Of a stretch of 64,000 bases of DNA, positions 24,459-61,960 are shown in pieces. The stretch spans positions 149,707 through 213,706 of IMG/VR virus record IMGVR_UViG_3300043434_000734, one strand, 5' to 3'. Position 1 is the stretch's first letter, and every line of letters begins with the position of its first letter. The stretch is from a virus (lineage: Duplodnaviria > Caudoviricetes). The position numbers were made by a program, and so were the translations under genes. The notes under the pieces were generated by a model, which was not told the origin of the DNA, made no database searches, and saw nothing but the letters and a program-made list of their open reading frames with translations.

Positions 24459-24551
24459 ATAATATTAATTAAGTTATACACAAATATTTTTCACGATATT
24501 TGGAATATATTCATAATATACATACTTTTGTTCCATAAATAAATCGAAATT

Positions 24552-43450: not shown

Positions 43451-43614
43451 CCTGCCACACAAATAATCCAATGGTCCACCTGATCACACATCTTGTTATT
43501 TAGACTGATAATAAATTAAAAAAAAGTATCATATAAATTTGTTATATAATAAAACATATGTTATATTTGTATACACAATCAGAACGGGGACAGGTCTACT
43601 GAACACCACACACT

Positions 43615-43878
43615 ATGAGTACTTTATTTGTAACAATGTCAAATTTGAGAAACGAGTTAATGAAGAAGTATGGTAACAATCGTATCTTCTTAAAAGAAAT
43701 TATGAACTCGGATGAGGTAATGGTCATTTGTTTTAATGTCGGAGGTAACTACGATTCAATTGTTGGGGAGGTTGTATTAACTGATGAGGGTTGGACACTT
43801 GGGGAGTTTAACCACGAAGTCTTTGAGATGTTATTAGACCACCAAAAATCGTTTACTGAAATTGGAGTTTTGAATTAG
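43615..43878 (+). CDS. hypothetical early protein
   Basis: Own promoter and terminator. Confidence 0.8.
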   Translation: MSTLFVTMSNLRNELMKKYGNNRIFLKEIMNSDEVMVICFNVGGNYDSIVGEVVLTDEGWTLGEFNHEVFEMLLDHQKSFTEIGVLN

Positions 43879-44245
43879 ATTTGTTGTTCATCCAAAGTCA
43901 TCCCTCACTGAGAAATCGGTGGGGGATTTTTGGTTTATGGGGTAAATAGTTGACGGTAGTCAGGAAGGGGTGAAATGTTGTGTGGCAGTCTCACCTGTAA
44001 CGTCCCCTGATCTTATTGTGTGGCAAGTGATGTAAAATGTGGATAACTTTATTTGGTATAATCAAAATAGTTGTATATCTTTGTGGTTTGGTTTGTGTGC
44101 CACACAAGTTATGGGTACGTCCTCCGTCCCACCCCAAAAGTTAAGGGTATGTTAAATAAAAAATAATTTAATTTTTTTTATATAATAATTTGGATGGTAA
44201 ATTAGAATTGACTACCTTTACATAACACAAAAAAACACACACATT

Positions 44246-44812
44246 ATGACAACCCAAGTAAAAACCCAAATCGTAGTTAATGACCAAGAAATGGAATTGG
44301 TATTTCGTGAAGTTGAAAACCAAGTTCCCGTTCCATTTATTTCAGTTACTTTAAAAACCGAGTTTAAGGGTATGTTAAAGAAATGTAAGGAAGATGGAGA
44401 AATCAATCCTTACTACAAATCTTTACAAAAGGTTTCGACCAAAACTTTTCTTTTAGTAACTGACTATGTAAAAAGAGTCAAGGGAAATCGTACGAAAGAA
44501 GGTAAAGACCCCGAATCTTTTGTAGTTGAATCCCCAAGTGGTAAAGTTCATATTTCTAAATGTCTTTTAACTGACACCGAAACACACACCAAACGTTATG
44601 TAATGTTAGAGTGGTTTCCCGAAACAAAAGGTTCTACTGAATATTTTCAAGGTAACGACCGAATCGGTAAAGAGTTATTCTCAAAGTGGATGACCAATTA
44701 TGACACCTCAAATGAGAAACAAGGTTTGGAGAGAGAGGTTAAACCAATTACCCCACTATTCGAAAGTATCGTTTCCTTTCGAGTGAATGGAATGGAATAC
44801 ATTAGAGGTTAG
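44246..44812 (+). CDS. hypothetical early protein
   Basis: 188 aa; own promoter and terminator. Confidence 0.85.
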   Translation: MTTQVKTQIVVNDQEMELVFREVENQVPVPFISVTLKTEFKGMLKKCKEDGEINPYYKSLQKVSTKTFLLVTDYVKRVKGNRTKEGKDPESFVVESPSGKVHISKCLLTDTETHTKRYVMLEWFPETKGSTEYFQGNDRIGKELFSKWMTNYDTSNEKQGLEREVKPITPLFESIVSFRVNGMEYIRG

Positions 44813-45082
44813 TTCCCCTACTAACCGAAAAGACCACCCCGAAAGGAGTGGTTTTTTTTTGTCCAAAAAAAATTCTGAGGTTCGGAAAAAATTGTGTGGC
44901 AATTGTCATACATTAACACCATTTTAACAATTTAAATTTGGTGGGACGAAGACAAGAAAAAATTATTGTGTGGCAAATGCCAAATAAAAATTCGGTCGAG
45001 AAAAACCTTAACAAAGTGTTAACAAATAAAATCGTTGGATAATGATTATTGTTGTATATTTGTCATACAAACAAACCACGTT

Positions 45083-45277
45083 ATGACATCAACATTTTTA
45101 CCCATTGAGGAAATCCCAATGAAGTGTTTTAGAATCAAATTTCCCAACAACACCTACGATGTGTTCATCCCCGATACTACTGACAAGAGTAGTTGTGTGA
45201 ACATTACCGATGAAAATGGTGACCAAATCCCATTCAAGGATTGGGATAACGTTCTACAATTTTTACCAAACATTTAA
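45083..45277 (+). CDS. hypothetical early protein
   Basis: ATG 45083 after promoter at 45055. Confidence 0.7.
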   Translation: MTSTFLPIEEIPMKCFRIKFPNNTYDVFIPDTTDKSSCVNITDENGDQIPFKDWDNVLQFLPNI

Positions 45278-45529
45278 CAAATTAACCCCTTACGAAAGTG
45301 AGGGGTTTTTTTATGTGTAACCTTACACGTCCCTGAGAAATTTGTGTGGCGCCGATGTGGATAACTTTATTTTGTATAATAAAAATAGTTGTATACCTTT
45401 GTGGTCGGTTTTAATTTTGCCATACAAAATCCTCCACGGGTTCAGGACGTCCTAAAAAAATTAATAAAATGTTTGGTCTATAATAAATTATCTTGTATAT
45501 TTGTATCAACAAACAAACACAAATACATT

Positions 45530-45871
45530 ATGGAAACATTAGTAACTACCATTGTTAGAGATGAAAAAATTGAAAGTCTAAGAAAAGAATTGAATCAATT
45601 AGCACTTGAAAAATTCATAGATGAATTGTCATTCGAGGATATTAGAATAACAAGTTGTATCCATACAATTACGGGTATCAATTATTTGAAAATGTATGTT
45701 CATCTTCCCGAGTATCGTTCAAACACAAAGGACAAAGTGATTAATAAAAAACAAACAGCACATTTAGGTAAGTCGTCCAAAGTTTTCCCTTTAATGGTTA
45801 ATGAGAATTTTCGTAACTATATGGTAATAAAAATGAAAGATACACTTACACGAAAATTTTTAAACAAATAG
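45530..45871 (+). CDS. hypothetical early protein
   Basis: ATG 45530 after promoter at 45496. Confidence 0.8.
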   Translation: METLVTTIVRDEKIESLRKELNQLALEKFIDELSFEDIRITSCIHTITGINYLKMYVHLPEYRSNTKDKVINKKQTAHLGKSSKVFPLMVNENFRNYMVIKMKDTLTRKFLNK

Positions 45872-45875
45872 AGAT

Positions 45876-46082
45876 ATGAAAAAGACAACATTTTGGTTTT
45901 CAACTATTACGTTAATGTTTATGGGTACGTTATTATTCTTTGTAGGTTTAGAGAACTACCAAGATGAAATGTTACCAAAAGGAGTTAGAGAAAGTTTTTT
46001 GGTTGTGAGTGGTTTTGGTTTATTGGTTAGTATGTTTGGTTGTGTGTGTGGGGTGTTTAGTGATAAACGCCATTTGATTTAG
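45876..46082 (+). CDS. 2-TM small membrane protein
   Basis: Two hydrophobic helices. Confidence 0.75.
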   Translation: MKKTTFWFSTITLMFMGTLLFFVGLENYQDEMLPKGVRESFLVVSGFGLLVSMFGCVCGVFSDKRHLI

Positions 46083-46373
46083 TTCGTTTTTTTTGTTGTT
46101 CACATTAGAATCCCTCGGAGTTTTACTTCGGGGGATTTTTGTTTACCACAGATTTTCCGTCCTGATCCGCATCTTATATTGTGTGGCAACCATCTCACCG
46201 TGATTGTGATCAGACGGGATTTATTTGTGTGGCATTTGCCAGATGAATTGATCACCCGGATCAAACGGTCCCCTTATTTAGAATGAAAATAAATTAAAAA
46301 AAAGTATATAATTTATTTGGTGTATAATAAATTATGTATTATATTTGTGTATACAAAAAAACACAAACACACG

Positions 46374-47186
46374 ATGAAAATTACAAACGACTCAATCTGT
46401 TCGATGATAGTTTCAAAGGACTTCAAAGACCACCAAAGTAAATTCACATTAAACGTTCTTGAAACTAAAGGTTTAAACGATAACCAAAGTAGAATGTTAG
46501 GTGAGAAATTGAATTTCTACGAACAATCAGGTTTCCGTATGTTAGTATTCTCTAAAAAGTCAAAAGAGAACTTGGAAAACTATCTTATCCCTAAAGATAT
46601 CCGTTTAGATGTGTTGAGAAATTTACCTAATAGAAAAGATGTTATTCAAATTGATGAGAACAATTGTATCAAATATATGAAGGATGATGATACATTATGT
46701 TTTGCTACCCATTATAGAAAGTCGTCTGACTTCGGTACTAAACCTACTTGGGATAATATGATTCACACACATTTCTTTTATGTGGATTTAAAGACTGGTC
46801 ATATGGGATTTGATGAGTCAAACACATACACTAAAGAAGATGTTAAAGATGTCAAGACATTCATTGAGAAATTCTATTCACGTTTCTTAGTTGTAGTTAC
46901 TTACTTGGAATTAACCGATGTGACTTTGGATATTGTTGAGGGTGTGTTAGGTAAGAATAAAAATAAGAAGTCTAATTTGACTATTAGTAATAGTTCACGT
47001 TTCAATGTCATACACGTTAATACGAATTGGAACACAATGGTTATCAACGTTAGTACGTTTGGAGTACGTGGACATTGGAGATTACAACAATGTGGTGTGG
47101 GTAGAAGTCATTACAAGTATGTGTGGGTTAAACCTTATGAGAAAGGTCTCACTCGTAGACTACCTCAAAAAGAATTAGTTGGTTAA
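46374..47186 (+). CDS. phage hypothetical protein with VRGHWR motif
   Basis: C-terminal VRGHWRLQQCGVGRSHYKYVWVKPYEKG. Confidence 0.8.
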   Translation: MKITNDSICSMIVSKDFKDHQSKFTLNVLETKGLNDNQSRMLGEKLNFYEQSGFRMLVFSKKSKENLENYLIPKDIRLDVLRNLPNRKDVIQIDENNCIKYMKDDDTLCFATHYRKSSDFGTKPTWDNMIHTHFFYVDLKTGHMGFDESNTYTKEDVKDVKTFIEKFYSRFLVVVTYLELTDVTLDIVEGVLGKNKNKKSNLTISNSSRFNVIHVNTNWNTMVINVSTFGVRGHWRLQQCGVGRSHYKYVWVKPYEKGLTRRLPQKELVG

Positions 47187-47447
47187 TTGATTGTGTGTGT
47201 GGAACCCCCGATGAGAGTCGGGGGTTTTTTTGTGTCTGAAGGGTTCCGTCTCCTGAGCCATATCATATTTTGTGTGGCAGGTTCACCGTCAGGGCCGGCT
47301 GTGATCATCTTGTGTGGCAATTGTCATACATAGTATCCTTGCCAATCAATGTTGTGATTGACTTCAGGGTAGACCAAAAAAATAAATTAAATAATATTTG
47401 GTGTATAATAAATTATGTATTATATTTGTGTATTAAATGATAATAAA

Positions 47448-48059
47448 ATGAGAAAGAAAAAAATCGATTTAAGTTTAGTCACAATCCATACGAGTTCACT
47501 TGTTAGTGTTGACCCAAGAAATGATTTAGACGGCACTAATATCTATAACACAGAATTCATTCAGTTTATTACTGGTGAAATAAAAATGTACAATTTGGAT
47601 TCAGATAATGATGACGTTATCATTTTGGGTAATTTTAAATTGATGTTATTGTGGGGTACGGAAGAAATGATTTATGAATCGTTAGATAGTCACAGCAGAA
47701 ATACTGTAACATATGGTGACGAATTGTTCGATGAGGATATGAATGTGAAGGATGAATATTATGATTTGATGTGTGAAATATATGAGAATCGATTTTTAAT
47801 TGTTGAGGAGATTAATATAAATGAAGAATACCGAGGTCAGGGAGTGGTAAAAAAACTAATCGACACTATTAATTTAACATATCGTTGTCCAATGGTTTTA
47901 ATACCTTTTCCACTACAATATCAACCAACTCACGATAATGAAGAAGAATTAAAACTACTTCCCCCAATTAATGGTCCGATGAGAAAGGTTGTTAATTCCT
48001 ATAAGAGATGTGGGTTTAAGAAACCTAAACCGAGTTCACTCCTAATGGTTAAATGGTAA
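47448..48059 (+). CDS. GNAT-like acetyltransferase
   Basis: ININEEYRGQGVVKKLI and SYKRCGF. Confidence 0.65.
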   Translation: MRKKKIDLSLVTIHTSSLVSVDPRNDLDGTNIYNTEFIQFITGEIKMYNLDSDNDDVIILGNFKLMLLWGTEEMIYESLDSHSRNTVTYGDELFDEDMNVKDEYYDLMCEIYENRFLIVEEININEEYRGQGVVKKLIDTINLTYRCPMVLIPFPLQYQPTHDNEEELKLLPPINGPMRKVVNSYKRCGFKKPKPSSLLMVKW

Positions 48060-48359
48060 TCATAGTCCCACTCCAATCGAGTGGGATTTTTGTTTACCAC
48101 AGATTTTCCGTCCTGATCCGCATCTTATATTGTGTGGCAAAGAAACCTCCACCGTGATCTGTGCCGATCAGGTGCAATATGTTGTTTGGCAATTGCCACT
48201 CAATGTTCGGTGCTGTCACCGTCGCCTAATTCGTGTGGATAATGTGTGGAAAAAAAATAAAAAAAAAGTTTAAATATTTTTGGATATAATAAAAAAGGTT
48301 GTATCTTTGACATATCAAACAACCAAAGCGGTGGACAGCGTTACTGAACAAAATTTACT

Positions 48360-49094
48360 ATGTCATATTCAGGCAAAAAAATTAATGAAATTTACTCTAC
48401 TAAGGAGTACGCGAAATTCAAGTTAATCAAAGGTAATCGCGTTATCAAAAATCCTAAGATTAAAAAACTTGTTAAGTCGATGACTGAAAACGGGTGGTTA
48501 CCTGGCTCTTATGTAATCGTTAATAGCAAATGGGAAATCATCGATGGCCAACATAGAATCTTGGCAGGTATGCAATGTAATCTACCTATTGTTTATACAA
48601 TGGAGAAGAAAGCTGATGAGAAAGTAATGCGTGGTTTGAATACCGCAGGAGATAATTGGCAATTGAACGACCACTTACACGGATTTGTGGAAGATGGAAA
48701 TGAGCACTACATTAAGTTAGATAACTTGATGAAGGCTTTTCCCGAGTTAAAAATTACGGAGGCGATGATGTTATGTAAAAACGCTTATGTTGGTATTCCT
48801 CGTGGAACATTCGAGAGTGGTGAATTCACAACTAAGAATATGACCATAGCACATCAGTGGGGTGAGTACATTATGCGATTGAAACCTTTCGCTAAATTCT
48901 TTAACACGGGTATCTTTGTTAGAGCGTTAGTATGTTGTCTTACAAAGGAAGGTTTTAACTTCGAGGACTTTATGAGAAAGATTGAACTTCGACCAACTTC
49001 GTTAGTTAAGTGTGGAACGAGAGAACAATACATCGAATTATTTGAGAGTATCTACAACTATCGTAGAAGCGATAAATTGAACTTACGATACTAA
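48360..49094 (+). CDS. ParB-N-like domain protein
   Basis: GNR...LVKSM...VIVN...IIDGQHRI. Confidence 0.8.
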   Translation: MSYSGKKINEIYSTKEYAKFKLIKGNRVIKNPKIKKLVKSMTENGWLPGSYVIVNSKWEIIDGQHRILAGMQCNLPIVYTMEKKADEKVMRGLNTAGDNWQLNDHLHGFVEDGNEHYIKLDNLMKAFPELKITEAMMLCKNAYVGIPRGTFESGEFTTKNMTIAHQWGEYIMRLKPFAKFFNTGIFVRALVCCLTKEGFNFEDFMRKIELRPTSLVKCGTREQYIELFESIYNYRRSDKLNLRY

Positions 49095-49337
49095 GAGTTT
49101 GGTTGTGGTTAGAAAATTGGGGTGTTCGAAAGGACATCCCTTTTTTTATGCGTATGACACAACGCAGCTTGAGTCGCCGGCGTCAGGGAATGTTGTTTGG
49201 CAATTATACGTATTACATATGTTGCCACAAGAATTTGTGGCCAGGTCCCTGACGTAAAACTTTTAACAAAACATTCACAATAAAACTTGTAATATAATCG
49301 TTTAGTATGTATATTTGTATCACTAAACCCACTAACA

Positions 49338-49550
49338 ATGATTAACCACTCTTTCACAAAAGAACAACTAATTGGTCGTCGTATCGTATTACATAAGATG
49401 AACGATGACCCAAAGACAAACCCAATTCAACCCAATACAATGGGAACGATAATATCCGTAGATGATATGGACTATTATCAAGTGAAGTGGGACAATGGTA
49501 GAACTTTAAATCTACTACCCGATGAAGATGAATTTGAATTTATTAACTAA
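49338..49550 (+). CDS. DUF4314-like protein
   Basis: GRRIVLHKMNDDP...GTIISVDD...VKWDNGRTLNL. Confidence 0.8.
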   Translation: MINHSFTKEQLIGRRIVLHKMNDDPKTNPIQPNTMGTIISVDDMDYYQVKWDNGRTLNLLPDEDEFEFIN

Positions 49551-49561
49551 CACACAATACA

Positions 49562-49705
49562 ATGAAAGAAATGTTTACCACTCTTAGAGATGTCTACAAG
49601 GAAGACCCTAAGGATTTTATCATCACATTATTATTTGGAATCTTTATCTTTACGATGACTTGGTTCCTATTATGGTTTCACGGAACATTTATGTACGATA
49701 TGTGA
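49562..49705 (+). CDS. 47-aa single-TM protein not in the ORF track
   Basis: MKEMFTTLRDVYKEDPKDFIITLLFGIFIFTMTWFLLWF... Confidence 0.65.
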   Translation: MKEMFTTLRDVYKEDPKDFIITLLFGIFIFTMTWFLLWFHGTFMYDM

Positions 49706-49915
49706 ATGTTTCCCGTTTAAACTTTCTAACCCTCGACTTGTTCGGGGGTTTTTTGTTTCTGTGAACCTCATCAAAAATCTGAGTCTGTAAAAAATTGTGT
49801 GGCAACTGCCAATCAAAAAGTTATCAGAACCTTCTGATAAAAAAATAATTAATGAATTGTTTGGTATATAATATATTTTGTTGTATATTTGAGTACACAT
49901 TTAAACACAAATATT

Positions 49916-50116
49916 ATGGAAGGAATTCAATTTGACCGAAACCGACACGGAGGACTCTATGACAGAGGTAGTGCTGACAAATACTATGGTAGATGTAAAT
50001 CACCACATTGGTACCCCAAGGGTACGGGTCGTGGTAAACCTATTACTGACCTTACCGAAGAGGAAATCAAGGAGTACAATTTAGGTTACGATGAAGAAAC
50101 CGAAACCAAATTTTAA
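49916..50116 (+). CDS. hypothetical early protein
   Basis: HGGLYDRGSADKYYGR; own promoter and terminator. Confidence 0.8.
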   Translation: MEGIQFDRNRHGGLYDRGSADKYYGRCKSPHWYPKGTGRGKPITDLTEEEIKEYNLGYDEETETKF

Positions 50117-50362
50117 TGAAAGGGGAACGAAAGTTCCCTTTTTTTATTTCACCTGAAGTTACTGTGCGACGGGGGAAAGTTGTTTGGCAAGTTCACCTTC
50201 ACTGATCAGCACTGATCTATTTGTTTGGCAATTGCCACAAGATATTGTACAGTGGATCACAGGTGAATTTTCTTTCACAAAATTTTAACAAAAAAAGATT
50301 AAATAAATTTGGATGTATAAATAAAATAGTTGTATATTTGTGTACACAAAACAAACAACGTT

Positions 50363-51133
50363 ATGACTATTAAACTAAACACAAACTTATTCCCTATCAT
50401 TTCAGTGGCTATGTATGGAACTTACTTAGACCCTGATTCTATGTTTGATTCGTATATGATTGAATCCGATAAAGAGGAAGGTTATATACATTTTGATTTA
50501 GATTATTTTTGGAGTAATTTTCAATACGATAAATATCGATTGGCAATTCAGGATAGAGCACATTCATTCATCAACGGAAAACATTCCGAAAATAATGTGT
50601 GGGTATTAATTAAGGCTGGTGAAATCTATTCCCCTAAGTATTATAACTTTAGTAACGATGAAATTGATTTGGATGTAACCTTTAGTAAGTCCAAAGTTTT
50701 GAATGAGGTTAATAAAAACATTACTAAGTTTAATGAGTTCCTTAAAGAACGTTATAGTAGTTGTGATGGATTCAATTCATTCACCGCTAATAACTACATT
50801 GAGTGGTTGGAAGATTATAATGAGGATAAGGACACCGCAGTTGGTGCTGTTCTAACTTACTTATTCCAAGAAACGATTGAGGAAAATCGTGAGGGTTTTA
50901 TTCAACACGTTTGTGATGACTATATGGATTATCGTGAGTTCGTGGACTTCGAGGAACACGATGAGGAGGTGGTTGTATTACGTAACTACGTGTATGAAAA
51001 TTATAACACTATTGATGTGGATTCAATTGATGAGGAAACATTTAAATTTAAAGTATTTGGATTAGAGGATATAAAAAAATTATTAAAGGAGTTCGTATTA
51101 CAGATAGATAATAAGACCCTTTCACTTTTTTAG
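50363..51133 (+). CDS. hypothetical early protein
   Basis: YSPKYYNFSND motif; own promoter and terminator. Confidence 0.85.
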   Translation: MTIKLNTNLFPIISVAMYGTYLDPDSMFDSYMIESDKEEGYIHFDLDYFWSNFQYDKYRLAIQDRAHSFINGKHSENNVWVLIKAGEIYSPKYYNFSNDEIDLDVTFSKSKVLNEVNKNITKFNEFLKERYSSCDGFNSFTANNYIEWLEDYNEDKDTAVGAVLTYLFQETIEENREGFIQHVCDDYMDYREFVDFEEHDEEVVVLRNYVYENYNTIDVDSIDEETFKFKVFGLEDIKKLLKEFVLQIDNKTLSLF

Positions 51134-51336
51134 TTTGTTTGTATGTGTGTGTGAAACCCCTGATGAGAGTCGGGGGTTTTTTTGTTGTCATACAACTCCA
51201 CTTGAGTCTGAAGACAAAATATATTGTGTGGCAAGTATTACATCTTAACAAAAATTTAACAAAAAAAATAATTAATATATTTTGTTTCTAATAAAAATGT
51301 ATTATCTTTATATCACTAAACAAACACATCTACACA

Positions 51337-51537
51337 ATGGAACAAACAAACATTATCCGCAAAAAGGTTACCTTCGGTAACGACAACGAAATTAAAGGTT
51401 GGATTAAAACAACTGATGGTACAAAAACTAACTTCCTTATTAATGAGGGTGAAATCAAACAATGGGGAAATGCAACATCAACTGACACTAATCCATTCTT
51501 ATTAGGTTTACTTGAAATGTTGTATAGTCAAGAATAG
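51337..51537 (+). CDS. hypothetical early protein
   Basis: Own promoter and terminator. Confidence 0.75.
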   Translation: MEQTNIIRKKVTFGNDNEIKGWIKTTDGTKTNFLINEGEIKQWGNATSTDTNPFLLGLLEMLYSQE

Positions 51538-51779
51538 GTTGAATAAATTTTAGAACTCGAATTGGGAAACCCTACGACTTTTAGTTGTGGGGTTTTTTGT
51601 TGCTGTGCACTGTACCCGCACAGATCAGGGATAGATGTTGTTTGGCAATTGCCACACAATATGGATCCTGTAGATCACGCCGGCAAATTCTTTAACAAAA
51701 AATTATGAAAAATAAATTAAATAATTTTTTTTATAATAAAAATAGTTGTATATTTGTATGAACAAAAACAAACAAACAA

Positions 51780-52127
51780 ATGAAAAAAGAAATGAATTGC
51801 GACAAAAAAAGTTTCCCAAAGGGTTACTGGTCAAAGAAAGGTCAACCAACACAAAATGCATTGAATATGTTTTTCGTGTACTTAACAAATTGTCCAAGTG
51901 ATTGGAATGAAAAGAAAGGTAGACACAAAGAAGCTCTACAAAAGACCAGAGAGTATTTTGATGTTGACTATGGTATTGAATGTATGTTAACTTGGGGTAT
52001 CAACTTCGGCTGTAAAGATTCAGAAACTTCAAGTGAGAGACACCACGCAATGTCTTTATCTTATCACGACGCAAAAGGAATGATTGGTAAAGGTTATAGA
52101 TTTTGTGAATTAAAGATAGCAGCTTAG
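51780..52127 (+). CDS. hypothetical early protein
   Basis: Own promoter and terminator. Confidence 0.8.
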   Translation: MKKEMNCDKKSFPKGYWSKKGQPTQNALNMFFVYLTNCPSDWNEKKGRHKEALQKTREYFDVDYGIECMLTWGINFGCKDSETSSERHHAMSLSYHDAKGMIGKGYRFCELKIAA

Positions 52128-52233
52128 ATTTATTCCCTCACAGAAATGTGGGGGATTTTTTAAAAAAATTAAATAATAAATTTGGTGAATGATATAATTT
52201 TTGTATCTTTACATCATCAAACAAATAACACAT

Positions 52234-53151: not shown

Positions 53152-53417
53152 TACATTATAGGGTTAATCGTTAAATAGAAATCCTCTCGGTTCTGCTGAG
53201 GGGATTTTTTGTGCGCACGTATTACAGCGCAAACTAAATAGCAACCGTGCGCTGCAACAGCTGATCATATTGTCTGGCAAGTTAAACGTATTAGATCTGC
53301 CACACAACATCCCGAATGGAGATCACAGGTGAATCATCTTAACAAAAAATTAACTAAATAATTTGTTTGGTAATAAAAATACTTGTATATTTGTGTACAC
53401 AACAAAACAAATACATT

Positions 53418-53756
53418 ATGACTAACAAAAGAATTACCGAAGTTTGTTTCCCTCTTTTAGAAAGAGAGTTCGACTTAAAAGAAACGATGAAAGTATTAAG
53501 TTACAATCCCACAATATTTTGGAGTTGGGGAGTAAGTACAAGATTAAACATCAACGACAAAGGTCTACTATTAGAAGTTAATGGACATCATCACAAGGGT
53601 AGTGTGTTAATCACATTAGGTTGGAACGACACTTATTGTGTGTACATCATCAACAATAGAGGTAGAATCTTAAATGAATATAAAGAAGTTTATTTCGACG
53701 TGTTAACTGAATTGATTGACAATCGAATTGAAAGAATTAAAGAATATAGTTTGTAG
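53418..53756 (+). CDS. hypothetical early protein
   Basis: WSWG...VNGHHHKGSVLITLGWNDTY. Confidence 0.8.
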   Translation: MTNKRITEVCFPLLEREFDLKETMKVLSYNPTIFWSWGVSTRLNINDKGLLLEVNGHHHKGSVLITLGWNDTYCVYIINNRGRILNEYKEVYFDVLTELIDNRIERIKEYSL

Positions 53757-54011
53757 TTTTTTTTGTTTTAAATACACTTTGAAATCCCTCGGTCTTTTAG
53801 GTCGGGGGATTTTTGTTTCCACCTGAAGTTACAGTTGGGTCTGGTGGAATTTGTTTGGCAAGTGCCACACAATAATTTACAGACTCAGAACCCAAAAAAA
53901 AATTGTCACAGATAAAAAAAATAAATTAAATAATTTATTGTATAATCAGAATTAATAACTATCTTTGATAACACAATCAAAACGGGGACAGGTTTCTGAA
54001 CAACAAAGAAT

Positions 54012-54302
54012 ATGTTAGAATTCGAATTTCAAATGGACGACATTAGTAATGACATTTATGTTGAGGGTGAGTTTACCGACAACATCACGGAAGAACACGT
54101 GTTAAACATTCTTCACTTTGTTAGAAACCAAGAGTGGTTTAGTGAGGGGAATAAAACGGAAGGTATCATCACCTTAACCGAAGAGAGTACCGAAGTAATG
54201 TGGAATAAAGTCTTTATGGTCATCACAGATGATGGGGATGTCTTGGATGAAGTTGATGGACCGATAACCCACGTAATTAATAAACAATTTTACAAATTGT
54301 AA
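54012..54302 (+). CDS. acidic hypothetical early protein
   Basis: Own promoter and terminator. Confidence 0.8.
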   Translation: MLEFEFQMDDISNDIYVEGEFTDNITEEHVLNILHFVRNQEWFSEGNKTEGIITLTEESTEVMWNKVFMVITDDGDVLDEVDGPITHVINKQFYKL

Positions 54303-54505
54303 AATGAACCCCCACCGAAAGGTGGGGGTTTTTTATTGTCCACAGATTTCCCGTCCTGATCAGCTCGGAATGTTGTTTGGCAATTGCCACACAATATCCA
54401 TTGATCAACCGGTCGACGAAAAATTCCTTTAACAAAAAATTAACTAAATAAATTTGTGAATAATAAAAATTGTTGTATATTTGTATTGTACTAAACAAAC
54501 AACCA

Positions 54506-54703
54506 ATGACAAATTACCAAGTATTATCCCCTGATGGTTTTACGATTGAATTCGATAGACCATACTACACTTCAAGAGAAAAAGCTTTAGAAGCATTTCA
54601 CGATTGGAAAGAACGTTATAGAAAACAAGGTTACTATTCCTCGAACAACGGAAGAATCCCTTTGGATGAATTAGAAAATCATTGTACAATTCAATTAGTA
54701 TAA
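54506..54703 (+). CDS. hypothetical early protein
   Basis: ATG 54506 after promoter at 54476. Confidence 0.75.
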   Translation: MTNYQVLSPDGFTIEFDRPYYTSREKALEAFHDWKERYRKQGYYSSNNGRIPLDELENHCTIQLV

Positions 54704-54705
54704 CT

Positions 54706-54924
54706 ATGATAAAGTCAGTAGAAGAAATGGACACCAAGATTGAAATTAATCTACTTGGACCGGACGGAAATGTATTCAACCTTATATCGGTGGGTGGGAG
54801 ATTGTGTAAACAACTCGGTAAGAATTCGGAGATGTTTACTCGCCGTATGATGAGTGGAGACTACGAAAATGCTGTTAACACATTCGAAGAATACTTCGGA
54901 GATTTTGTAACCCTTTATAGATAA
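54706..54924 (+). CDS. phage hypothetical protein
   Basis: INLLGPDGNVF...MMSGDYE...FG. Confidence 0.8.
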   Translation: MIKSVEEMDTKIEINLLGPDGNVFNLISVGGRLCKQLGKNSEMFTRRMMSGDYENAVNTFEEYFGDFVTLYR

Positions 54925-54925
54925 T

Positions 54926-55123
54926 ATGGATAATTTTTTAAAACCTTATATGTTGGGGGAAACTCCACAAGTAACCGAAACTAAAATTAATAATCTGTCT
55001 ATGATAGATGTTAAGTGGCATTATGATTTTATCGGAGGTAAATCCGAAAGATTAAAAGTAATTAACCATTTGAAAAAGGTTGGTTATGTGTATCAAAATA
55101 GTTTTTACATTAAAATTTTGTAA
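54926..55123 (+). CDS. hypothetical protein
   Basis: Closely spaced ORF in operon. Confidence 0.65.
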   Translation: MDNFLKPYMLGETPQVTETKINNLSMIDVKWHYDFIGGKSERLKVINHLKKVGYVYQNSFYIKIL

Positions 55124-55141
55124 CCCTTTATAGATAATGAA

Positions 55142-55333
55142 ATGATAATCCCAATTAATTCAGTGGCAAGTGTATTAGACACCGACACCAAAATCGTTTA
55201 TGCTAAATTTCAAAAAGGTGGGTATGACATCACGAGTGGTGTACACATAGACAACCTTTCTAAAAAGTTCGTGGATGATATTAGTGAAGAAGATATAATT
55301 TTAATTAATCAATTTGTTGGTATAATAAAATAA
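55142..55333 (+). CDS. hypothetical protein
   Basis: 63-aa ORF in operon. Confidence 0.65.
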   Translation: MIIPINSVASVLDTDTKIVYAKFQKGGYDITSGVHIDNLSKKFVDDISEEDIILINQFVGIIK

Positions 55334-55369
55334 ATTGTATATCTTTACATCACACAAAAAAAACAAGTT

Positions 55370-55573
55370 ATGGAAAAGTACAAAGTAGTTAGTGGTGGTT
55401 CCCCAAACGAACTATCAAACAAGGTAAACGAATTACTCGAAACGGGTGAATGGTTTATCAATGGTGGACATCAGGTTGTAATACTTCGACAACAAAATCG
55501 TTATCGTGGAGACCAACATATTGATACCTTAAACGAACTTGAATATACTCAAACCCTTATAAAGAAAAACTAA
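55370..55573 (+). CDS. DUF1737-like small protein
   Basis: YKVVSG...LSNKVNELL..GEW.I.GG. Confidence 0.55.
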   Translation: MEKYKVVSGGSPNELSNKVNELLETGEWFINGGHQVVILRQQNRYRGDQHIDTLNELEYTQTLIKKN

Positions 55574-55574
55574 T

Positions 55575-55841
55575 ATGGAAACATTTGATTTTTATTTAGA
55601 CCAAAAACATACCATTTGGTATCGTAATACATTCACTATCGAAGCTGAGACTTTGGAAGAGGCTAAGGCTAAGGTTATTGAAATTTGTAATAACCCTACG
55701 GAAGATTTACCGAGTGATGAATGGGAAACCTTATTCGACACGGTGGAAGGATTAACAGTGGGAGATAACGGAGGTCAGGCGACTGAGGAAGTCTATACAC
55801 ATTCGGGAGAAATGATTTGGGATAACATTAAAACTAATTAA
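55575..55841 (+). CDS. acidic hypothetical protein
   Basis: FTIEAETLEEAKAK motif. Confidence 0.75.
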   Translation: METFDFYLDQKHTIWYRNTFTIEAETLEEAKAKVIEICNNPTEDLPSDEWETLFDTVEGLTVGDNGGQATEEVYTHSGEMIWDNIKTN

Positions 55842-55842
55842 G

Positions 55843-56190
55843 ATGTCAGAGTTCACAAGAAAATACATAGAATTAAAAATAGAAAGTTTAGAGTATATTA
55901 GAGAATTCTTTAAGAAGAATAATATAACTCGTTATGAATTCGTATCACTTGAAGAAATTGAGTCGGACGACTTCTCGGATAATCACTGGCAATATCCACA
56001 AGCAACAGTTGTTGGTAGACACGACCATACATACTATTATACTATTACAAGTATTACATTAGAAGATGGTAACCTATGGTTCAATGGTGTAAGTGTTGGA
56101 GAAGATAGTGATGACTACAACTTCGGAGAGCTTGAGGTAGATGTGGCTTGTTTATGTGATTCAGCAGATTTATTAACTTTAAATAACTAA
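55843..56190 (+). CDS. acidic hypothetical protein
   Basis: 115-aa ORF in operon. Confidence 0.75.
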   Translation: MSEFTRKYIELKIESLEYIREFFKKNNITRYEFVSLEEIESDDFSDNHWQYPQATVVGRHDHTYYYTITSITLEDGNLWFNGVSVGEDSDDYNFGELEVDVACLCDSADLLTLNN

Positions 56191-56194
56191 TAAA

Positions 56195-56515
56195 ATGAAC
56201 AGAGAAATAGTAGATACGAAAAACATTCTTGACCTATCGAACATAGATTCGTGGGACTTAATTAAGGAATTAAAATCTCGTGGGTATTACACTCAATTGA
56301 ATTATAGTCCGAGTGATGTTGATATGATGTTAGAAAGTATTAATAGTGATAGAGATGAGAAAGAAGGGAACATCATTATGTTATGTCAAGAAGATAAGGA
56401 AGCAATTCTCGAAGATTGTTTTAACACCGACTGGTATTGTGAGAGAATGAATGATGATTTGGTGGAACATATCTTGGACAACTACGATGACGAAACGTAT
56501 TACAATAAAAGTTAA
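56195..56515 (+). CDS. acidic hypothetical protein
   Basis: 106-aa ORF in operon. Confidence 0.75.
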   Translation: MNREIVDTKNILDLSNIDSWDLIKELKSRGYYTQLNYSPSDVDMMLESINSDRDEKEGNIIMLCQEDKEAILEDCFNTDWYCERMNDDLVEHILDNYDDETYYNKS

Positions 56516-56591
56516 ACATATTAAAAAAAAGTTTGGCTGTTAAAAAAAAGTGTATTACATTTGCACTATCAATTAATAAAATCCGTATATA

Positions 56592-56771
56592 ATGACAACG
56601 AAAATTATTTTATCAAACGACAAGAAATGCTACGATTTGTGGTATAGTGTTGATGGTCTTAATTACAAGTTACATAAGAGTGGTTTTAAAAGTATAGACT
56701 CGGCAATAAAAGAATCAACAATAATATCTGGCACACAAAAATTATTAAGAGACATCTTATTAAGAAAATAA
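56592..56771 (+). CDS. 59-aa protein not in the ORF track
   Basis: [22 protein letters not shown]...; promoter at 56556, terminator near 56804. Confidence 0.65.
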
Positions 56772-57076
56772 AGGTTAGGTTAGTAAGTTTAGTAGTTAGT
56801 AGTCCCTCATCAGAAATGGTGGGGGATTTTTTTATGTCTGAAGTCTCACCTGCGGATCTTCCAGGAAGATATTGTGCGGCAAATATTTCACACTAGTTTA
56901 CCCAGTAATCTGTACTGGTCCTTCCAGGAAAAGTTGTGTGGCAGTTGCCAAACAATATTCCCCTGTGGCCCGTGATCAGATCAGTAACTTCACAAAACTT
57001 TAACAAAAAAAGATTAAAATAAATTTGGTGTATACAAGTATATGACTTATCTTTGTGTACACAAGAACAAAATACT

Positions 57077-57697
57077 ATGGCTAACTATTGTCAAAACACG
57101 ATTACTATTAAGGGAGACAAACTCACCCTTAAGAATATCATCAACATACTCGATAAAGAATCTGAAGAAGGATTATTCGAGAGATTGATTGGTACCAAAG
57201 CTGGAGTTAGTAAACAAGAGTACGAATCTAACTCATATAACTTCAACCTTGAGTATTGGGGATGTAGAAGTGATGTGGATATTGATGGTGAATTCAGATA
57301 CGAGGTGATGAGTGATACTGAGTTGGTCCTATATCCTGACACACCATATTCTCCACCAATCCCATTCTGTCAAACTCTATGTATAAACTATGGTGTAGAT
57401 ATCCATATGTTTTATTATGGGATGGAGGACAACTTCTGTGGTGTGACCACTCTTACTAAAGAAGGTTTCATTAATGAGGAGGATTATCTTTATCTTGATG
57501 GTTTATACATATTCAACGAAATGGATTTATTTTGGTCTGAAGTTGAGTCACGTATGGAAAGTCATATTGAATATTGTGAGAACTATGACGTGGAAGAATT
57601 CATAGAGAACAATGTTGAAGGGGTACCAACCGAAGTCAAAGACGAAATCAGAGAGATGTTTTCACAAATATTACAAGATTATCAAATTATAAATTAA
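57077..57697 (+). CDS. YubB / DUF1281-like ferredoxin-fold protein
   Basis: MANYCQNTITI, NLEYWG, DTPYSPP, NFCG. Confidence 0.75.
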   Translation: MANYCQNTITIKGDKLTLKNIINILDKESEEGLFERLIGTKAGVSKQEYESNSYNFNLEYWGCRSDVDIDGEFRYEVMSDTELVLYPDTPYSPPIPFCQTLCINYGVDIHMFYYGMEDNFCGVTTLTKEGFINEEDYLYLDGLYIFNEMDLFWSEVESRMESHIEYCENYDVEEFIENNVEGVPTEVKDEIREMFSQILQDYQIIN

Positions 57698-57702
57698 ATC
57701 AT

Positions 57703-57957
57703 ATGTTAATGGCAAGTAAAATTAAACCTGAAAAGTATTCTATCGAAGAATTCAACGAGTGGACCAAGTATATTGGTTTCGGAACAAGATTCGATTATAC
57801 CAACTTTGAGAACCGAGAGTTGGTAAGAAGAATCGAGGAAGCTAAATTTGCTCAGGACAATCCAGTGGTAAAGGTTCCGAGTGATAAACTTGAGAGTCTG
57901 AAGACGGACCAGGGAAATATATTCTCTGGCATCAAATCAATTTTAAATTTCTTTTAA
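57703..57957 (+). CDS. hypothetical protein
   Basis: 84-aa ORF. Confidence 0.7.
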   Translation: MLMASKIKPEKYSIEEFNEWTKYIGFGTRFDYTNFENRELVRRIEEAKFAQDNPVVKVPSDKLESLKTDQGNIFSGIKSILNFF

Positions 57958-57971
57958 AACAAATAAATAAA

Positions 57972-58487
57972 ATGGGTAGAGTAAACAAAAGCACCGAGGG
58001 TGTGTTCGTCAACATTGTAGGGTCGAACTCGGAGATTAGTAAGTACAAACAGTTCCTTCACAGATCAGCGTCGACGATGTCGTCTGGCAAGTTCAGTTCT
58101 AAGTACGACGGTCTGTCAACAGCATATAACAATAAGTGTACTGTCATTAAGATGGACCTTGAACAATTGGCACAGTTGGAAGTAATAATGATGCAAATCC
58201 GTTCAGTGGATGAGATTGAAGGTAACATCGTATGGTTCCAAATGAGAAACAAGTACGTGTATGCAAGATGTCCTTTCTATAGAACAGACCAATCCATTAA
58301 TGAGATGAGATGTCTTATCGATAATCTTGAGTTTTATTTCACAGACGTTCAGGATACAGATCTGTCAATATTGTCTGGCAATCCTGAATTCGTGGAGAAG
58401 ACCAAGGAGAAACTTATTGCCAAGATGGAAGATGAAATTGGTGAGAACGTTCGTAACTACGAGAAAGTATACGGAAAAATATCCTAA
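57972..58487 (+). CDS. hypothetical protein
   Basis: 171-aa ORF. Confidence 0.75.
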   Translation: MGRVNKSTEGVFVNIVGSNSEISKYKQFLHRSASTMSSGKFSSKYDGLSTAYNNKCTVIKMDLEQLAQLEVIMMQIRSVDEIEGNIVWFQMRNKYVYARCPFYRTDQSINEMRCLIDNLEFYFTDVQDTDLSILSGNPEFVEKTKEKLIAKMEDEIGENVRNYEKVYGKIS

Positions 58488-58528
58488 AAAAAATTTGTAT
58501 ATTCTAACTTAATCATTATCTTTACTGT

Positions 58529-58861
58529 ATGACAAACCAACAACTACTACAACGTCGTGACAACCTCCACCGTGAGATTGTGGTGTCTACTATGAAGTTA
58601 AATCAGCTCAACGATGAGTTTGATTTAATCTTGAAGGAACCGTTCGAATTCGAACACGCGTATTACAGACCATATAGTAGTGAGGGTGGTCGAGAACTAC
58701 TGAAGGTTACGGGTGTTGACGGAACCACGGGTGAACTCCTGTGTGAGAATGAGGACCGTCAATTAAGATTCGTCTACTATCACGAGCTAACACTCGAAGA
58801 ACTGACTCGTCTACACCGTAGTGTATTACAGGGAGAATATGTATTACAAATCCTAATATAA
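58529..58861 (+). CDS. hypothetical protein
   Basis: Promoter at 58517. Confidence 0.75.
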   Translation: MTNQQLLQRRDNLHREIVVSTMKLNQLNDEFDLILKEPFEFEHAYYRPYSSEGGRELLKVTGVDGTTGELLCENEDRQLRFVYYHELTLEELTRLHRSVLQGEYVLQILI

Positions 58862-58868
58862 CAACCAA

Positions 58869-59504
58869 ATGAAAACAATCACACTTTCTAATGAAGTAAT
58901 GGTATCGGACCCTTGTTACACTGTCGGTACCTGGTGTCAACACAAGTTGACCAATGTATTACCTGGTGAGTATCAAACCAAGGTAATGAAGTTTCAGGAC
59001 CCTATGTGGGGTAACCGATGTTCATTCATCATTGCTGTCCACAAGGATTATAACACAGATGAGAAGCTCAATTGGAGAAAGGTGGTGGCGGATATTGGTG
59101 TGGACTCAGGTCAGGCTGGTTTCTTCAGTATGGATAGTTACCGAAAGGATGAGGTGTTCGTAACAGGTATATCTGAACATTCCAAGAGATATGGTCAATA
59201 CTCCAAGAAAGAACAAGAAGGTGAGGAATGGTATGGTCACATATGTGATTTAACTGATAACTCCGAACGTTGGGGTACCTATTCAAATGGTATTGTTTCT
59301 TCTTCAGGTATCGGGGACGGATCATACGAACTTCGTGTGGCAAAACACAAGGGTAAGATTGTGGGTATACTACTTGACTTCTTTATGGAGAAGTTGACAG
59401 GACCTGTGATTGAGTCTATGAGAACCTCTGAGATGTTGGGGGACGTATGTGGAATCTGTGGGGAAGATAATGTAGATGGTGTATCTTGTAACTGTAAAAA
59501 CTAA
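58869..59504 (+). CDS. DUF4241-like protein
   Basis: VSDPCY, GVDSGQAGFF, SSGIGDGSY. Confidence 0.7.
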   Translation: MKTITLSNEVMVSDPCYTVGTWCQHKLTNVLPGEYQTKVMKFQDPMWGNRCSFIIAVHKDYNTDEKLNWRKVVADIGVDSGQAGFFSMDSYRKDEVFVTGISEHSKRYGQYSKKEQEGEEWYGHICDLTDNSERWGTYSNGIVSSSGIGDGSYELRVAKHKGKIVGILLDFFMEKLTGPVIESMRTSEMLGDVCGICGEDNVDGVSCNCKN

Positions 59505-59509
59505 CTATA

Positions 59510-59644
59510 ATGAAAAAAATTCTAACGGACCTTGAGTGGTTCATCGACTTCTACCTGATGATCCTGTTGTATAATCCAAACAAGGTACATCGGTACGATG
59601 CTTGGATGACCAAGAAGTGGGGGACAAGATACACAGGAAAATAA
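59510..59644 (+). CDS. 44-aa protein not in the ORF track
   Basis: MKKILTDLEWFIDFYLMILLYNPNK... Confidence 0.55.
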   Translation: MKKILTDLEWFIDFYLMILLYNPNKVHRYDAWMTKKWGTRYTGK

Positions 59645-59768
59645 CTACGATCCACAGAGGATCAGCTCTTTGATATCGTCTGGCAACGACACGTAAAAAA
59701 TATTGGGTATAATTTTTTATTACGAATATTGTTTGTTATATTTTAAATGTAACTTAAATAAATTCATT

Positions 59769-59948
59769 ATGAAAAAAACTACCAACACAGGAACAAGATC
59801 AACTTATACTCCTGTATCCAACAATGTTTACCACGATGGTTATTCTTATCGTGTACGTGTATCAATCAATGGTGAGAAGATCAGCAAGAACTTTTCTAAC
59901 AAGAGAAAGGCAATTGTATATCGTAACTCTTTATTGAAGTCAGCATAG
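59769..59948 (+). CDS. small AP2/Arm-like DNA-binding protein
   Basis: YRVRVSINGEKISKNF...KAIVYRN. Confidence 0.55.
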   Translation: MKKTTNTGTRSTYTPVSNNVYHDGYSYRVRVSINGEKISKNFSNKRKAIVYRNSLLKSA

Positions 59949-60119
59949 GACAATATTCTATTTGGACACTTGAGACCCTCACAGTGTGAGGGTTTTTTGT
60001 TTCCCACCTGAAGTACTCAGATGATCTGATCAGGATCAGGACTCCAATATTGTCTGGCAAGATATCACCACCCGACGGGATCACACTGTAACATATTGTG
60101 TAGCATAATATTTATTACT

Positions 60120-61019
60120 ATGAAGATATTGAAAGTACTTAAGGAACAGGAAGAGACTAACCCAAACCTACAGACCATCGACGGTGGAACCTTTGGGTTT
60201 ATGAAGGAGTCATTGGATAAGATTCAAAAGGAGTTAGATGAGACCAAATCGAGGATTTCCTACGAGCTGTTCGACTCACCTGACGGAACCTACAGATGTC
60301 ACACTCAATTCAATGTTACGAGATCATCTGAGACGGAGCTGAAGTTGTCTGGCAAGATATACCTAATCTTAAAAGAACCAACCATTCCGTTGGACTTCCT
60401 ATCAGTATCAGCCAAGTGGTTGTTAAATAAAATAAATGAATTATGTCCTGACGTATTTAATACGGTAAAGGATGGTAGATATCAAGAAGGATCTATTACC
60501 TTTAACTTCCACGACGTCTTCATATCATATAACGATTCCTTCTTAGGTCTATACGATTATATGGAACGTGCGTATTACAATACTAACGTGGTTAACCTAA
60601 TCCCAATAGAAGAGTTAATGAATGACAGATCCATTGATTTCAACTATCAACTCGAACCATCTCAGGTCCCAACCTTCAGTGACGATTATTCTCTGGCAAT
60701 AGAAAGAATAATAAAGAAAGTCAAATCAGTATATAAGGGATTCCGTAAGGGAACATTCAAGGGACACGAATATGAGTATAAAGAAAACCCTCCAAGAATA
60801 TCTATCCATCCTAGAGACGATGACTACAACCCACAAACCAAAGTAATACATCCGAAGTTCAGAGTTCAGATTAATGGTGGTTATGTATGGTTAGACGGTA
60901 AACCCACCAGTGAGTTTGGTGCTTTACCCGAAAATAGATTCACGGACACCCTCGTCATTAAACAGTTCGACGAATATATTAAAGCCCGTTTCGAACAGTT
61001 CGGTATTAAGATTCTATAA
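60120..61019 (+). CDS. hypothetical protein
   Basis: ATG 60120; N-terminal VLKEQEE. Confidence 0.75.
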   Translation: MKILKVLKEQEETNPNLQTIDGGTFGFMKESLDKIQKELDETKSRISYELFDSPDGTYRCHTQFNVTRSSETELKLSGKIYLILKEPTIPLDFLSVSAKWLLNKINELCPDVFNTVKDGRYQEGSITFNFHDVFISYNDSFLGLYDYMERAYYNTNVVNLIPIEELMNDRSIDFNYQLEPSQVPTFSDDYSLAIERIIKKVKSVYKGFRKGTFKGHEYEYKENPPRISIHPRDDDYNPQTKVIHPKFRVQINGGYVWLDGKPTSEFGALPENRFTDTLVIKQFDEYIKARFEQFGIKIL

Positions 61020-61960
61020 TAGATGTTGTAACAACTAAATATTGTCTGGCAAGTGTATTACGGGGGACCTTCGGTCCCCCTTCATCCCGTACTAATTGTA
61101 CTATACTAAGAACCCTTCGGAAAATCCCTAAGGGTTTTTTTAATTTCCGTTGTACTATTCTAAGATGTATGACACCTGAAGGTCCTCCCGACAGGGAGGA
61201 CCGTAAGAATGTATTACGTTCATATGTGGATAACTTGTGAACCTATAACGTACTTTATGTTAAATAGATATGACAGGATGACAATCGGGTTTCTTGCCAG
61301 ACGACTTGTATGACGTTTGTTTAAGGTTTTTAGTAAAAGGTTAAACAGACCCTTGCCAGACAATATTGTATTACACGGGAAACTTTAACGGGTGTAATTA
61401 GTTTCCTGCGGGGGACCTTACTCCCTCCCTTCGGTCGGTCGGTCTCCGACAGGTCCCCCTTCAGGTTCCACGTGGAACAAATGTACCGAAGGTCAGGAGG
61501 AACGACTGTATGACATATAGTATATCGTATAATAGTGGGTCGAGTATACTGAAGGGACGACCGAAGTGAAACGCAGGGAGTCCCGTATAAGGGTATTATA
61601 TGTATACATTTTTCAAATTTTCCAGATAGTGGGTCTTAATTCACGCAAGGGTCAATCCCCCGGTACTTCCAACGTATATAAGAAAATATATAAATGTTCC
61701 GATATTATATATCCAGTGGGAAAAAGTGGGTAAAAATTACCCATTATATAGTGGATTATTGATCACGATAAAAGTTACCGAAAAAATACACGTTTTTAAG
61801 GGTAAAAACAGGAAAAAATACGGTGTTTTTTTAGGGGGAATTTAATGGGGATATTGTACCTTGTAGATAGGTTTTATTCGGGGGTAAGTAGTCGGTGTCG
61901 AAGACCCGATGGAACAAAGTGTAGTCGGTCGGGAGACGATGTCTCCCTCCCTTCAGGGAA
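61020..61960. other. long non-coding region rich in hairpins and repeats
   Basis: GGGGGAC-CTTCG-GTCCCCC, GGTCCTCCC-GACA-GGGAGGACC, GGGAGAC-GAT-GTCTCCC, DnaA box at 61225, box copies, A-tracts. Confidence 0.8.

Follow-up and report, generated by a model that had tools for sequence, protein, structure and literature searches.

Stoperators, the sites found in cluster A mycobacteriophages, are asymmetric, numerous, intergenic and oriented with transcription, and they are read by a monomer (PMC9283540). Their repressor, of the gp71 type, has helix-turn-helix and stoperator domains, a feature of cluster A. The KorB operators (OB) of plasmid RK2 are likewise numerous; their distances from promoters vary, and their reader is a protein of the ParB family (PMC11790492). 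In T4-type phages, the small variable genes of a hyperplastic region are separated by repeated spacers known as PeSLs, each with a terminator and an early promoter, at which gene cassettes are exchanged (PMC2839356, PMC4122927). Here we describe a repeated word, TTGTNTGGCA (the box), that is clustered in one part of a viral DNA window of 64,000 nucleotides. The window is the whole stretch that we analyzed, positions 149,707 to 213,706 of IMG/VR virus record IMGVR_UViG_3300043434_000734 (Duplodnaviria; Caudoviricetes). The box has an unusual combination of properties. It is confined to the early block of giant phages that look lytic, it occurs as a mixture of solitary and head-to-head sites, it is coupled to terminators, and it is both enforced inside open reading frames (ORFs) and shared across unrelated phages.

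Like the sites of the cluster A mycobacteriophages (read by L5 gp71 or the TipsytheTRex repressor; PMC9283540), the box is a short asymmetric word, present in tens of copies that are mostly intergenic, oriented with transcription, and at times located at promoters. A stoperator is ~13 bp, and the unit described below, (A)ATR-TTGTNTGGCA-A, is similarly asymmetric. In contrast, stoperators are spread over the whole genome of a temperate phage, whereas the box is limited to one 18-kb block of apparently lytic giant phages. Also unlike stoperators, one third of the boxes form head-to-head doubles and the first site of a cluster stands 35-42 nt past a terminator. No gp71-like repressor is known here; no search was aimed at one. 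The KorB operators are comparable in two ways: palindromic sites, here about one third of the total, stand upstream of promoters at differing distances, and the regulated genes include one for a ParB-fold protein. They differ in that most of the present sites are oriented half-sites, and in that the distributions of protein and word do not match outside the giant-phage group. PeSLs resemble the spacers of the present array in that a terminator and an early promoter recur between small variable genes, and probably also in cassette exchange, except that they have no extra oriented box, and the present box is found in ORFs and in unrelated phages as well. It is therefore more than a patch of homology.

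We found 33 exact copies of the box in the window. All were between 43453 and 61363 and none was in 1-43400, which confirmed a count given in a preliminary description of this DNA. Dinucleotide-preserving shuffles of the window gave an expectation of 0.43 copies and a maximum of 2. We also searched for the 22-mer TTGTNTGGCANNTGCCANACAA, allowing up to 3 mismatches, and recovered 11 copies with 0 expected: four that are perfect and seven with one or two mismatches, all at the positions reported previously. The array and its sites are as follows.

43453-61363, plus strand: box-bearing array of small genes, cassettes followed by an operon
43453-43462, minus strand: left-border reversed box, directly after conserved DNA with a G-run and a C-run
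44016-44107, plus strand: geneless promoter, with a forward box at 44016, TGTGGATAA at 44038, a host-type promoter at 44052-44083 and a reversed box at 44098
44892-44913, plus strand: box with an imperfect partner, 2 mismatches (22-mer match)
44966-44987, plus strand: box with an imperfect partner, 1 mismatch (22-mer match)
45342-45427, plus strand: second geneless promoter, with a forward box (1 mismatch) at 45342, a DnaA-box word at 45356, a promoter at 45371 and a reversed box at 45418
46179-46188, plus strand: solitary first box, 38 nt past a terminator T-run, in a 58-nt exact repeat (46132-46189 = 48083-48140)
46225-46246, plus strand: second box with an imperfect partner (2 mismatches), 46 nt after the first box at 46179
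47310-47331, plus strand: second box with an imperfect partner, 40 nt after the first box at 47270
48182-48203, plus strand: second box with an imperfect partner, 52 nt after the first box at 48130
49795-49816, plus strand: box with an imperfect partner (1 mismatch), 40 nt past a terminator T-run
50221-50242, plus strand: second box with an imperfect partner, 41 nt after the first box at 50180
51638-51659, no strand: perfect head-to-head double of 22 bp, spacer AT (22-mer match)
53270-53307, no strand: head-to-head pair with a spacer of 18 nt
53851-53872, no strand: perfect double, spacer AG (22-mer match)
54373-54394, no strand: perfect double, spacer AT, ending 59 nt before the -33 TTTG at 54453 (22-mer match)
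56934-56955, no strand: perfect double, spacer GT (22-mer match)
58371-58380, plus strand: in-ORF box, reading TTG TCT GGC A, in ORF 57972-58487
60050-60059, plus strand: C-variant box in the short gap ahead of ORF 60096
60345-60354, plus strand: in-ORF box in ORF 60096-61019
61042-61051, plus strand: C-variant box directly past the last ORF of the array
61354-61363, minus strand: right-border reversed box

The clustered word recurs in at least seven related records of giant freshwater phages, of ~290-335 kb. The window is collinear, in reversed orientation, with ~22-90 kb of a complete IMG/VR genome of 335,630 bp (G001), in which 34 of the 36 copies are within 22.3-40.3 kb. We found 35 copies in 15 kb of G002 and 30 copies in L149, a 13-kb contig that had been binned into a Bacteroidota metagenome-assembled genome. 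The word was present too in L013/L021 and L020, whose genomes are ~316-334 kb. Among more distant relatives, G013 had 19 of its 20 copies in 41.7-59.7 kb and G014 had 11 copies in 25 kb. The left border of the array is also kept: in the window, runs of GGGGGG...CCCCCC (43380-43452) are followed by the reversed box, and the same arrangement is found in G001 and G002.

The basic unit is an asymmetric word rather than a palindrome. We pooled seven giant-phage arrays with 181 half-sites, and 135 of these (~75%) were co-directional with the genes (forward boxes); the proportions were 18 of 20 in G013 and 10 of 11 in G014. Alignment of the 135 forward boxes gave an extended, asymmetric unit of ~14 bp, (A)ATR-TTGTNTGGCA-A. 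The match to a partner at 2-nt spacing was bimodal. A partner with no more than 2 mismatches was present for 42 of the 135, and most of the others had 5-8 mismatches, leaving 93 forward boxes without a partner (that is, with at least 3 mismatches). Thus, about one third of the sites are double and about two thirds are solitary. In G013 and G014 nearly every site is solitary and co-oriented, and G014 is essentially without palindromes. The palindrome is therefore just one way of arranging the fundamental element, the oriented half-site. The preliminary description had proposed a 22-bp palindromic operator for a dimer. Given the solitary half-sites and the near-zero number of palindromes in G013 and G014, that definition was too narrow; a sequence-specific binder is still the best explanation.

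Where boxes do pair, they face each other. Of the inverted pairs within 130 nt in the seven arrays, 31 were head-to-head versus 2 tail-to-tail, with spacers of 2 to ~80 nt. Start-to-start distances were 12 (14 times), 22, 28, 43-44 (4 times) and 52 (3 times), and ranged up to 95. Direct neighbours peaked at a separation of 52-55 nt, about five helical turns. The central dinucleotide of the doubles was AT (16), TT (9), AA (6), AC (3), AG (3), GT (2), GA (2) or GG (1). Five reversed boxes in the window fall outside the perfect palindromes: the borders at 43453 and 61354 and the partners of 44016, 45342 and 53270.

Two smaller features that had been noticed around the boxes held up in part. The motif YCTGA is indeed present at 44874, 46161, 47252, 48112, 49778 and 51207, and accompanies 8 of the 24 plus-strand boxes of the window at -18/-17. 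It is nearly absent from the relatives (10 of 135 forward boxes overall), and we rejected it as part of the site because it is specific to the window; it is a lineage feature of duplicated spacers. The drift that had been described for the variable (free) base of the box also exists in the window, where it runs from G through a mixture of T and G to C. It is not a shared gradient: in five related arrays the free base was mostly T, with C close to the right end, and only that C-rich right end is common to them.

We found that the position of the boxes is tied to terminators and promoters. Small plus-strand genes make up the box region. Between 43.5 and 57 kb almost all of them have a consensus host-type promoter and a terminator (a hairpin and a T-run) of their own, and between 57 and 61 kb they form a packed operon. 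The promoter consensus is TTTG, 18-21 nt, TAnnTTTG, and 13 of its 18 copies in the window are inside the array. Where a cluster has a T-run upstream, its first box is 35-42 nt past that T-run in about half of the cases. This spacing was seen across six phages (window examples are 46140-46188, 47232-47279 and 49755-49804), and the sequence of the linker between T-run and box is not conserved. Downstream, the boxes of the window lie 44-76 nt ahead of the -33 element; the distance from the last box of a cluster to that element is looser, 44-129 nt. G013 and G014 also have boxes of a second class, which come within 8-20 nt of the -33 TTTG on its upstream side.

Two of the window's promoters (44052 and 45371) have no gene behind them. 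Each stands between two boxes, one forward at about -60 and one reversed at about +15, and the DnaA-box word TGTGGATAA is directly upstream of both. The same order of box, DnaA-box words and promoter is found in an unrelated small phage (L014, 3088-3200). These promoters may be origins primed by transcription, or promoters of short RNAs.

The spacers of several phages hold further recurrent words in the interval from last box to promoter, namely ACAGGTGA, (C)GTATTACA and two TTAACA words ~11 nt apart. In the window, examples are at 53321-53360, 54403-54452 and 56974-57023.

Two boxes (58371 and 60345) are within ORFs, as had been reported. The codons TTG T(C/T)T GGC that contain the first of these are at the same place in six orthologues of ORF 57972-58487 that are 40-48% identical (including those of G001, G002, L149, G013 and G014). 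Two orthologues have Phe in place of Ser, and the nucleotide behind this change is precisely the box's free base. In this genome GGC makes up 4% of the Gly codons and TTG 20% of the Leu codons. That is, the word is maintained within coding sequence where spacers are missing, and there is selection at the level of DNA. A box in the DUF932 gene is found in the G001 subgroup only; therefore, in-ORF sites can also be gained.

Matches to the exact palindrome pattern were found, too, in phages of ~33 kb (G003-G005) and in other short contigs. In these small phages the word occurs in arrays with a 16-nt period (for example, forward, forward, reversed) where converging genes meet. In phages of the G003 type the array begins ~39 nt past the terminator T-run. 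There is also an inverted pair, 79 nt apart, within the large terminase ORF; this pair flanks a conserved ATPase motif and is not an insertion. In G003 (L058/L059) the array is at 15646-15683 and the terminase pair is at 24405-24503. Relatives that are 72-88% identical over the terminase stretch are without the array in the stretches fetched, and are also without the terminase pair. Based on these positions, a host factor or a different function is possible in the small phages.

The giant and small phages share almost nothing else. The shared items are a protein of 71-78 amino acids (57% identity), a CWxGY motif, collagen-like fibre repeats, and a CxxC...DG...CxxC finger. The finger is carried by a 116-amino-acid protein at 24552, an HNH endonuclease beside the G001 array, and a 163-amino-acid protein near the small-phage array. 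None of these shared items follows the distribution of the word cleanly. The 71-78-amino-acid protein, which has no annotation and whose orthologue in G001 is at 138311-138526, was considered as the reader of the box. Eight related smaller contigs with 57-60% matches (including L134-L136 and L140-L142) have at most one box within 10 kb of it, so there is no clear co-occurrence, and we rejected it. A NUMOD1 protein beside the small-phage array was also rejected, as phage L022/L158 carries the array without NUMOD1.

We tentatively favor the notion that the word is the site of a putative sequence-specific binder whose effect would be to silence or insulate the early cassettes that the host transcribes; this could well be its role, and it is the best-fitting version of the early-gene repressor that had been suggested. 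Each unit, (A)ATR-TTGTNTGGCA-A, is probably the target of a single protein module, and the head-to-head doubles (one third of the sites, at least 2 nt apart) would take two copies of the binder. The sites are spread over genes that would be transcribed early by the host RNA polymerase from consensus Bacteroidota promoters. Once present, the binder would coat these sites. As a roadblock, it would stop polymerases that read through the terminators and would hinder promoter use, leaving the early cassettes off or insulated, in the manner of the KorB operators or of stoperator networks, which are marked by an orientation-dependent block of elongation. The conserved spacers may, as a side effect, serve as exchange points for gene cassettes. 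Boxes are upstream of promoters, downstream of starts, past terminators and inside an operon, all with the same polarity. Activators, promoters and partition sites fit these positions less well than a silencer or insulator does.

Several points weigh against this proposal. The 35-42 nt spacing from terminators is predicted by no known operator model. The sites in the small phages, at converging gene ends and in the terminase gene, fit early-gene control poorly. Those boxes that are upstream of promoters would suit an activator equally. The word is restricted to one 18-kb block and is not genome-wide. No integrase or resolvase was found in G001 and the phages look lytic, so there would be no immunity repressor in the classical sense. 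Finally, a comparison of co-occurrence did not single out any candidate protein as the binder.

The genes that bear on the identity of the binder are listed here.

24552-24902, plus strand: zinc-finger and coiled-coil protein with its own host-type promoter at 24499, a lead only
48360-49094, plus strand: ParB-like protein with the motif GQHRILA, in the array, a candidate binder
52201-53151, plus strand: DUF932 gene, cargo of the array

The array cargo includes these DUF932 and ParB-like genes, and most of the remaining genes have no family. The protein at 48360 had been suggested as the binder. Its fold is of the ParB/Noc/KorB type, as expected from that suggestion: it matches the phage ParB-like family phrog_12305 (E value 3e-33), it carries a GxxRxxA-type motif (GQHRILA), and the top Foldseek matches of its model (predicted local distance difference test score, pLDDT, 88) in the PDB were ParB, Noc and KorB, over the N-terminal and DNA-binding domains. 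The gene is inside the array in the window, G001, G013 and G014, and this held for every giant relative checked. It is possible, and in our view unlikely, that the boxes are loading sites for this protein, similar to parS or the KorB operators. On this view the palindromes would be its entry points, from which spreading or sliding would allow it to silence early promoters remotely. KorB itself, a clamp of the ParB family, uses many palindromic operators at varied promoter distances (PMC11790492). However, two thirds of the sites are oriented half-sites and G014 has essentially no palindromes. In addition, the ParB-like gene was not found in the box-bearing small phages G003 and G004, and distant homologues, usually beside DUF932, are in contigs that have no box (L143-L148). 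That is, there are boxes in phages without the protein and there is the protein in phages without boxes. The box-free homologues beside DUF932 point to a cargo gene of the anti-defence or leading-region type.

Two other proteins had been put forward as binders. The protein called AP2-like (ORF 59703-59948) had no match to AP2 and no other significant family match. The protein at 19007-19252 did have matches of the ribbon-helix-helix type, and these were weak (E value ~0.01). Both ORFs are conserved among the giant phages, and the small phages lack them. This distribution resembles that of 48360, and co-occurrence therefore cannot choose among the three.

In some box-free phages (L145-L147) the DUF932 and ParB-like genes are adjacent. 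This suggests that the two form a conserved two-gene module.

We consider it rather unlikely that the box instead recruits a protein of the host (a regulator or a nucleoid-associated protein, for example), and that different phages of the same hosts took up this docking site independently. Such a factor would be consistent with the identical word in phage groups that share almost no proteins, and with the location of the word beside host DnaA-box words ahead of promoters in two unrelated groups. In addition, the half-site was 2.5-4 times more common than a reversed control in five Bacteroidota genomes, a comparison in which the control contains CG and is biased low. However, the exact palindrome was found in only 16 stretches of 185,579 species genomes, approximately the number expected by chance, and the sole multi-copy match was a phage contig. 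In 300 Bacteroidota genomes, near-palindromes were equal to the control (31 vs 24). No host regulon of the box was seen in these 185,579 species genomes or in the 300 Bacteroidota genomes.

We view as quite unlikely a terminator-coupled insulator word that is mobile between unrelated phages and read by a finger module derived from homing endonucleases (the CxxC...DG...CxxC module of the 24552 and 163-amino-acid proteins). This would involve coupling to intrinsic terminators at ~38 nt, and a need for the word that would be strong enough for it to enter coding sequence. The 163-amino-acid zinc-finger protein is found at 84-88% identity in relatives that have no array, and is therefore a lead only.

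Homing-endonuclease-like genes flank the array in the window (62186-63292, minus strand) and in G001 (23673-24773 and 44010-48152). They have zinc-ribbon repeats and a PD-(D/E)XK-like, HNH or GIY-YIG domain.

It is improbable that the box is mainly a recombination signal for cassette swapping, either by homologous exchange at spacers or through a site-specific enzyme acting at the 2-nt core. The array is much more variable than the DNA around it, and several comparisons point to exchange. Among ORFs of the cassette part, 9 of 31 have a homologue in G001, compared to 41 of 64 elsewhere, and the local gene order differs. Contigs of co-occurring relatives join different spacers of the window (for example, 47179 to 52135 and 46250 to 54419; metagenome contigs at 85% likeness), and the spacers hold exact repeats of 58, 39 and 28 nt. 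Based on the shuffled gene content and order, the spacer repeats and the contig joints, the spacers seem to behave like the cassettes of T4-type PeSLs. Such exchange would also account for the way in which the free base has become locally uniform (as with G on the left of the window), and leaves the in-ORF boxes unexplained. However, homologous exchange can produce the shuffling without any role for the box, and it needs neither boxes in ORFs nor a fixed distance to terminators.

The crossover sites of serine invertases and resolvases (hix, gix, res site I) consist of two inverted half-sites of ~10-12 bp around a 2-bp centre, and the doubles resemble them in having inverted half-sites that flank 2 bp. 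They differ in that most of the present sites are single half-sites and in that the centre varies (eight kinds of dinucleotide). In addition, no resolvase or tyrosine recombinase was found in the complete genomes G001, G003 and G004; for serine recombinases the search was for PF00239, and the control matched in 12 of 14 genomes. With no resolvase or integrase and variable core dinucleotides, we rejected site-specific recombination as the main role.

The box is most improbable as a promoter or start signal for a phage-encoded or phage-modified polymerase, giving the same genes a second, later mode of transcription: it is oriented with the genes and ahead of them, at times inside the preceding ORF as are T7-type promoters, but head-to-head doubles, 16-nt tandem arrays at converging gene ends and the terminase pair are unlike promoters, the distance from box to start codon varies widely, and, as far as the sequence can be read, the -24/-12 spacing of sigma-54 (GG and GC 10 nt apart in TGGCAC-N5-TTGC, ~7 nt in TGGCA-NN-TGCCA) is not found and the TTGC element is missing at solitary boxes.

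Of the roles that had been suggested besides repression, neither a partition array nor a DNA-entry handle found anything in its support. We set aside Chi-like, pac-like and DNA-entry roles because the frequency of the word in hosts is too low, the word is too long, and its positions are fixed with respect to terminators and promoters. A search of Rfam gave a single sub-threshold match and no known RNA family, megablast of the array against the phage collection gave no match, and a literature search on the box words returned primers only.

Other repeats were seen in bacterial genomes. In gut Bacteroidales (L032 1013-1122, L034 and L039) there are 22-bp tandem repeats centred on GGCAATTGCC, and in one Prevotella genome such repeats are just upstream of a gene for an HU-HIG DNA-binding protein. 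The 22-bp GGCAATTGCC repeats of the Prevotella genome look unrelated to the box, and we did not retain them as candidates.

The window begins with a cluster of transfer RNA (tRNA) genes and a transfer-messenger RNA (tmRNA), and it has the signals of a large phage of the Bacteroidota type. The phage tmRNA (5730-6131) has an unusual tag peptide that ends in AA and is next to five tRNAs at 97-951. The tetranucleotide CATG is absent from the 64 kb, compared to ~185 copies predicted by base composition, and G001 has 584. This looks like strain-specific avoidance of a restriction enzyme that cuts at CATG. GCGC is strongly depleted in the window. GATC is depleted outside the array (29 copies, 127 expected) and close to expectation inside it (39 copies, 58 expected; 43482-60628), there mostly in small spacer hairpins. 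We rejected these hairpins as a conserved part of the module, as the array of G001 holds only 6 GATC.

The box goes beyond known operator systems in three respects: it has entered coding sequence in spite of codon preference, its distance from terminators is fixed, and unrelated small phages share it. It marks an early block, transcribed by the host and rich in anti-defence-like cargo, in uncultured giant phages of Bacteroidota, and it provides a handle on the putative regulator that would switch off that block. The word is also a practical marker of the early region in related metagenomic genomes.

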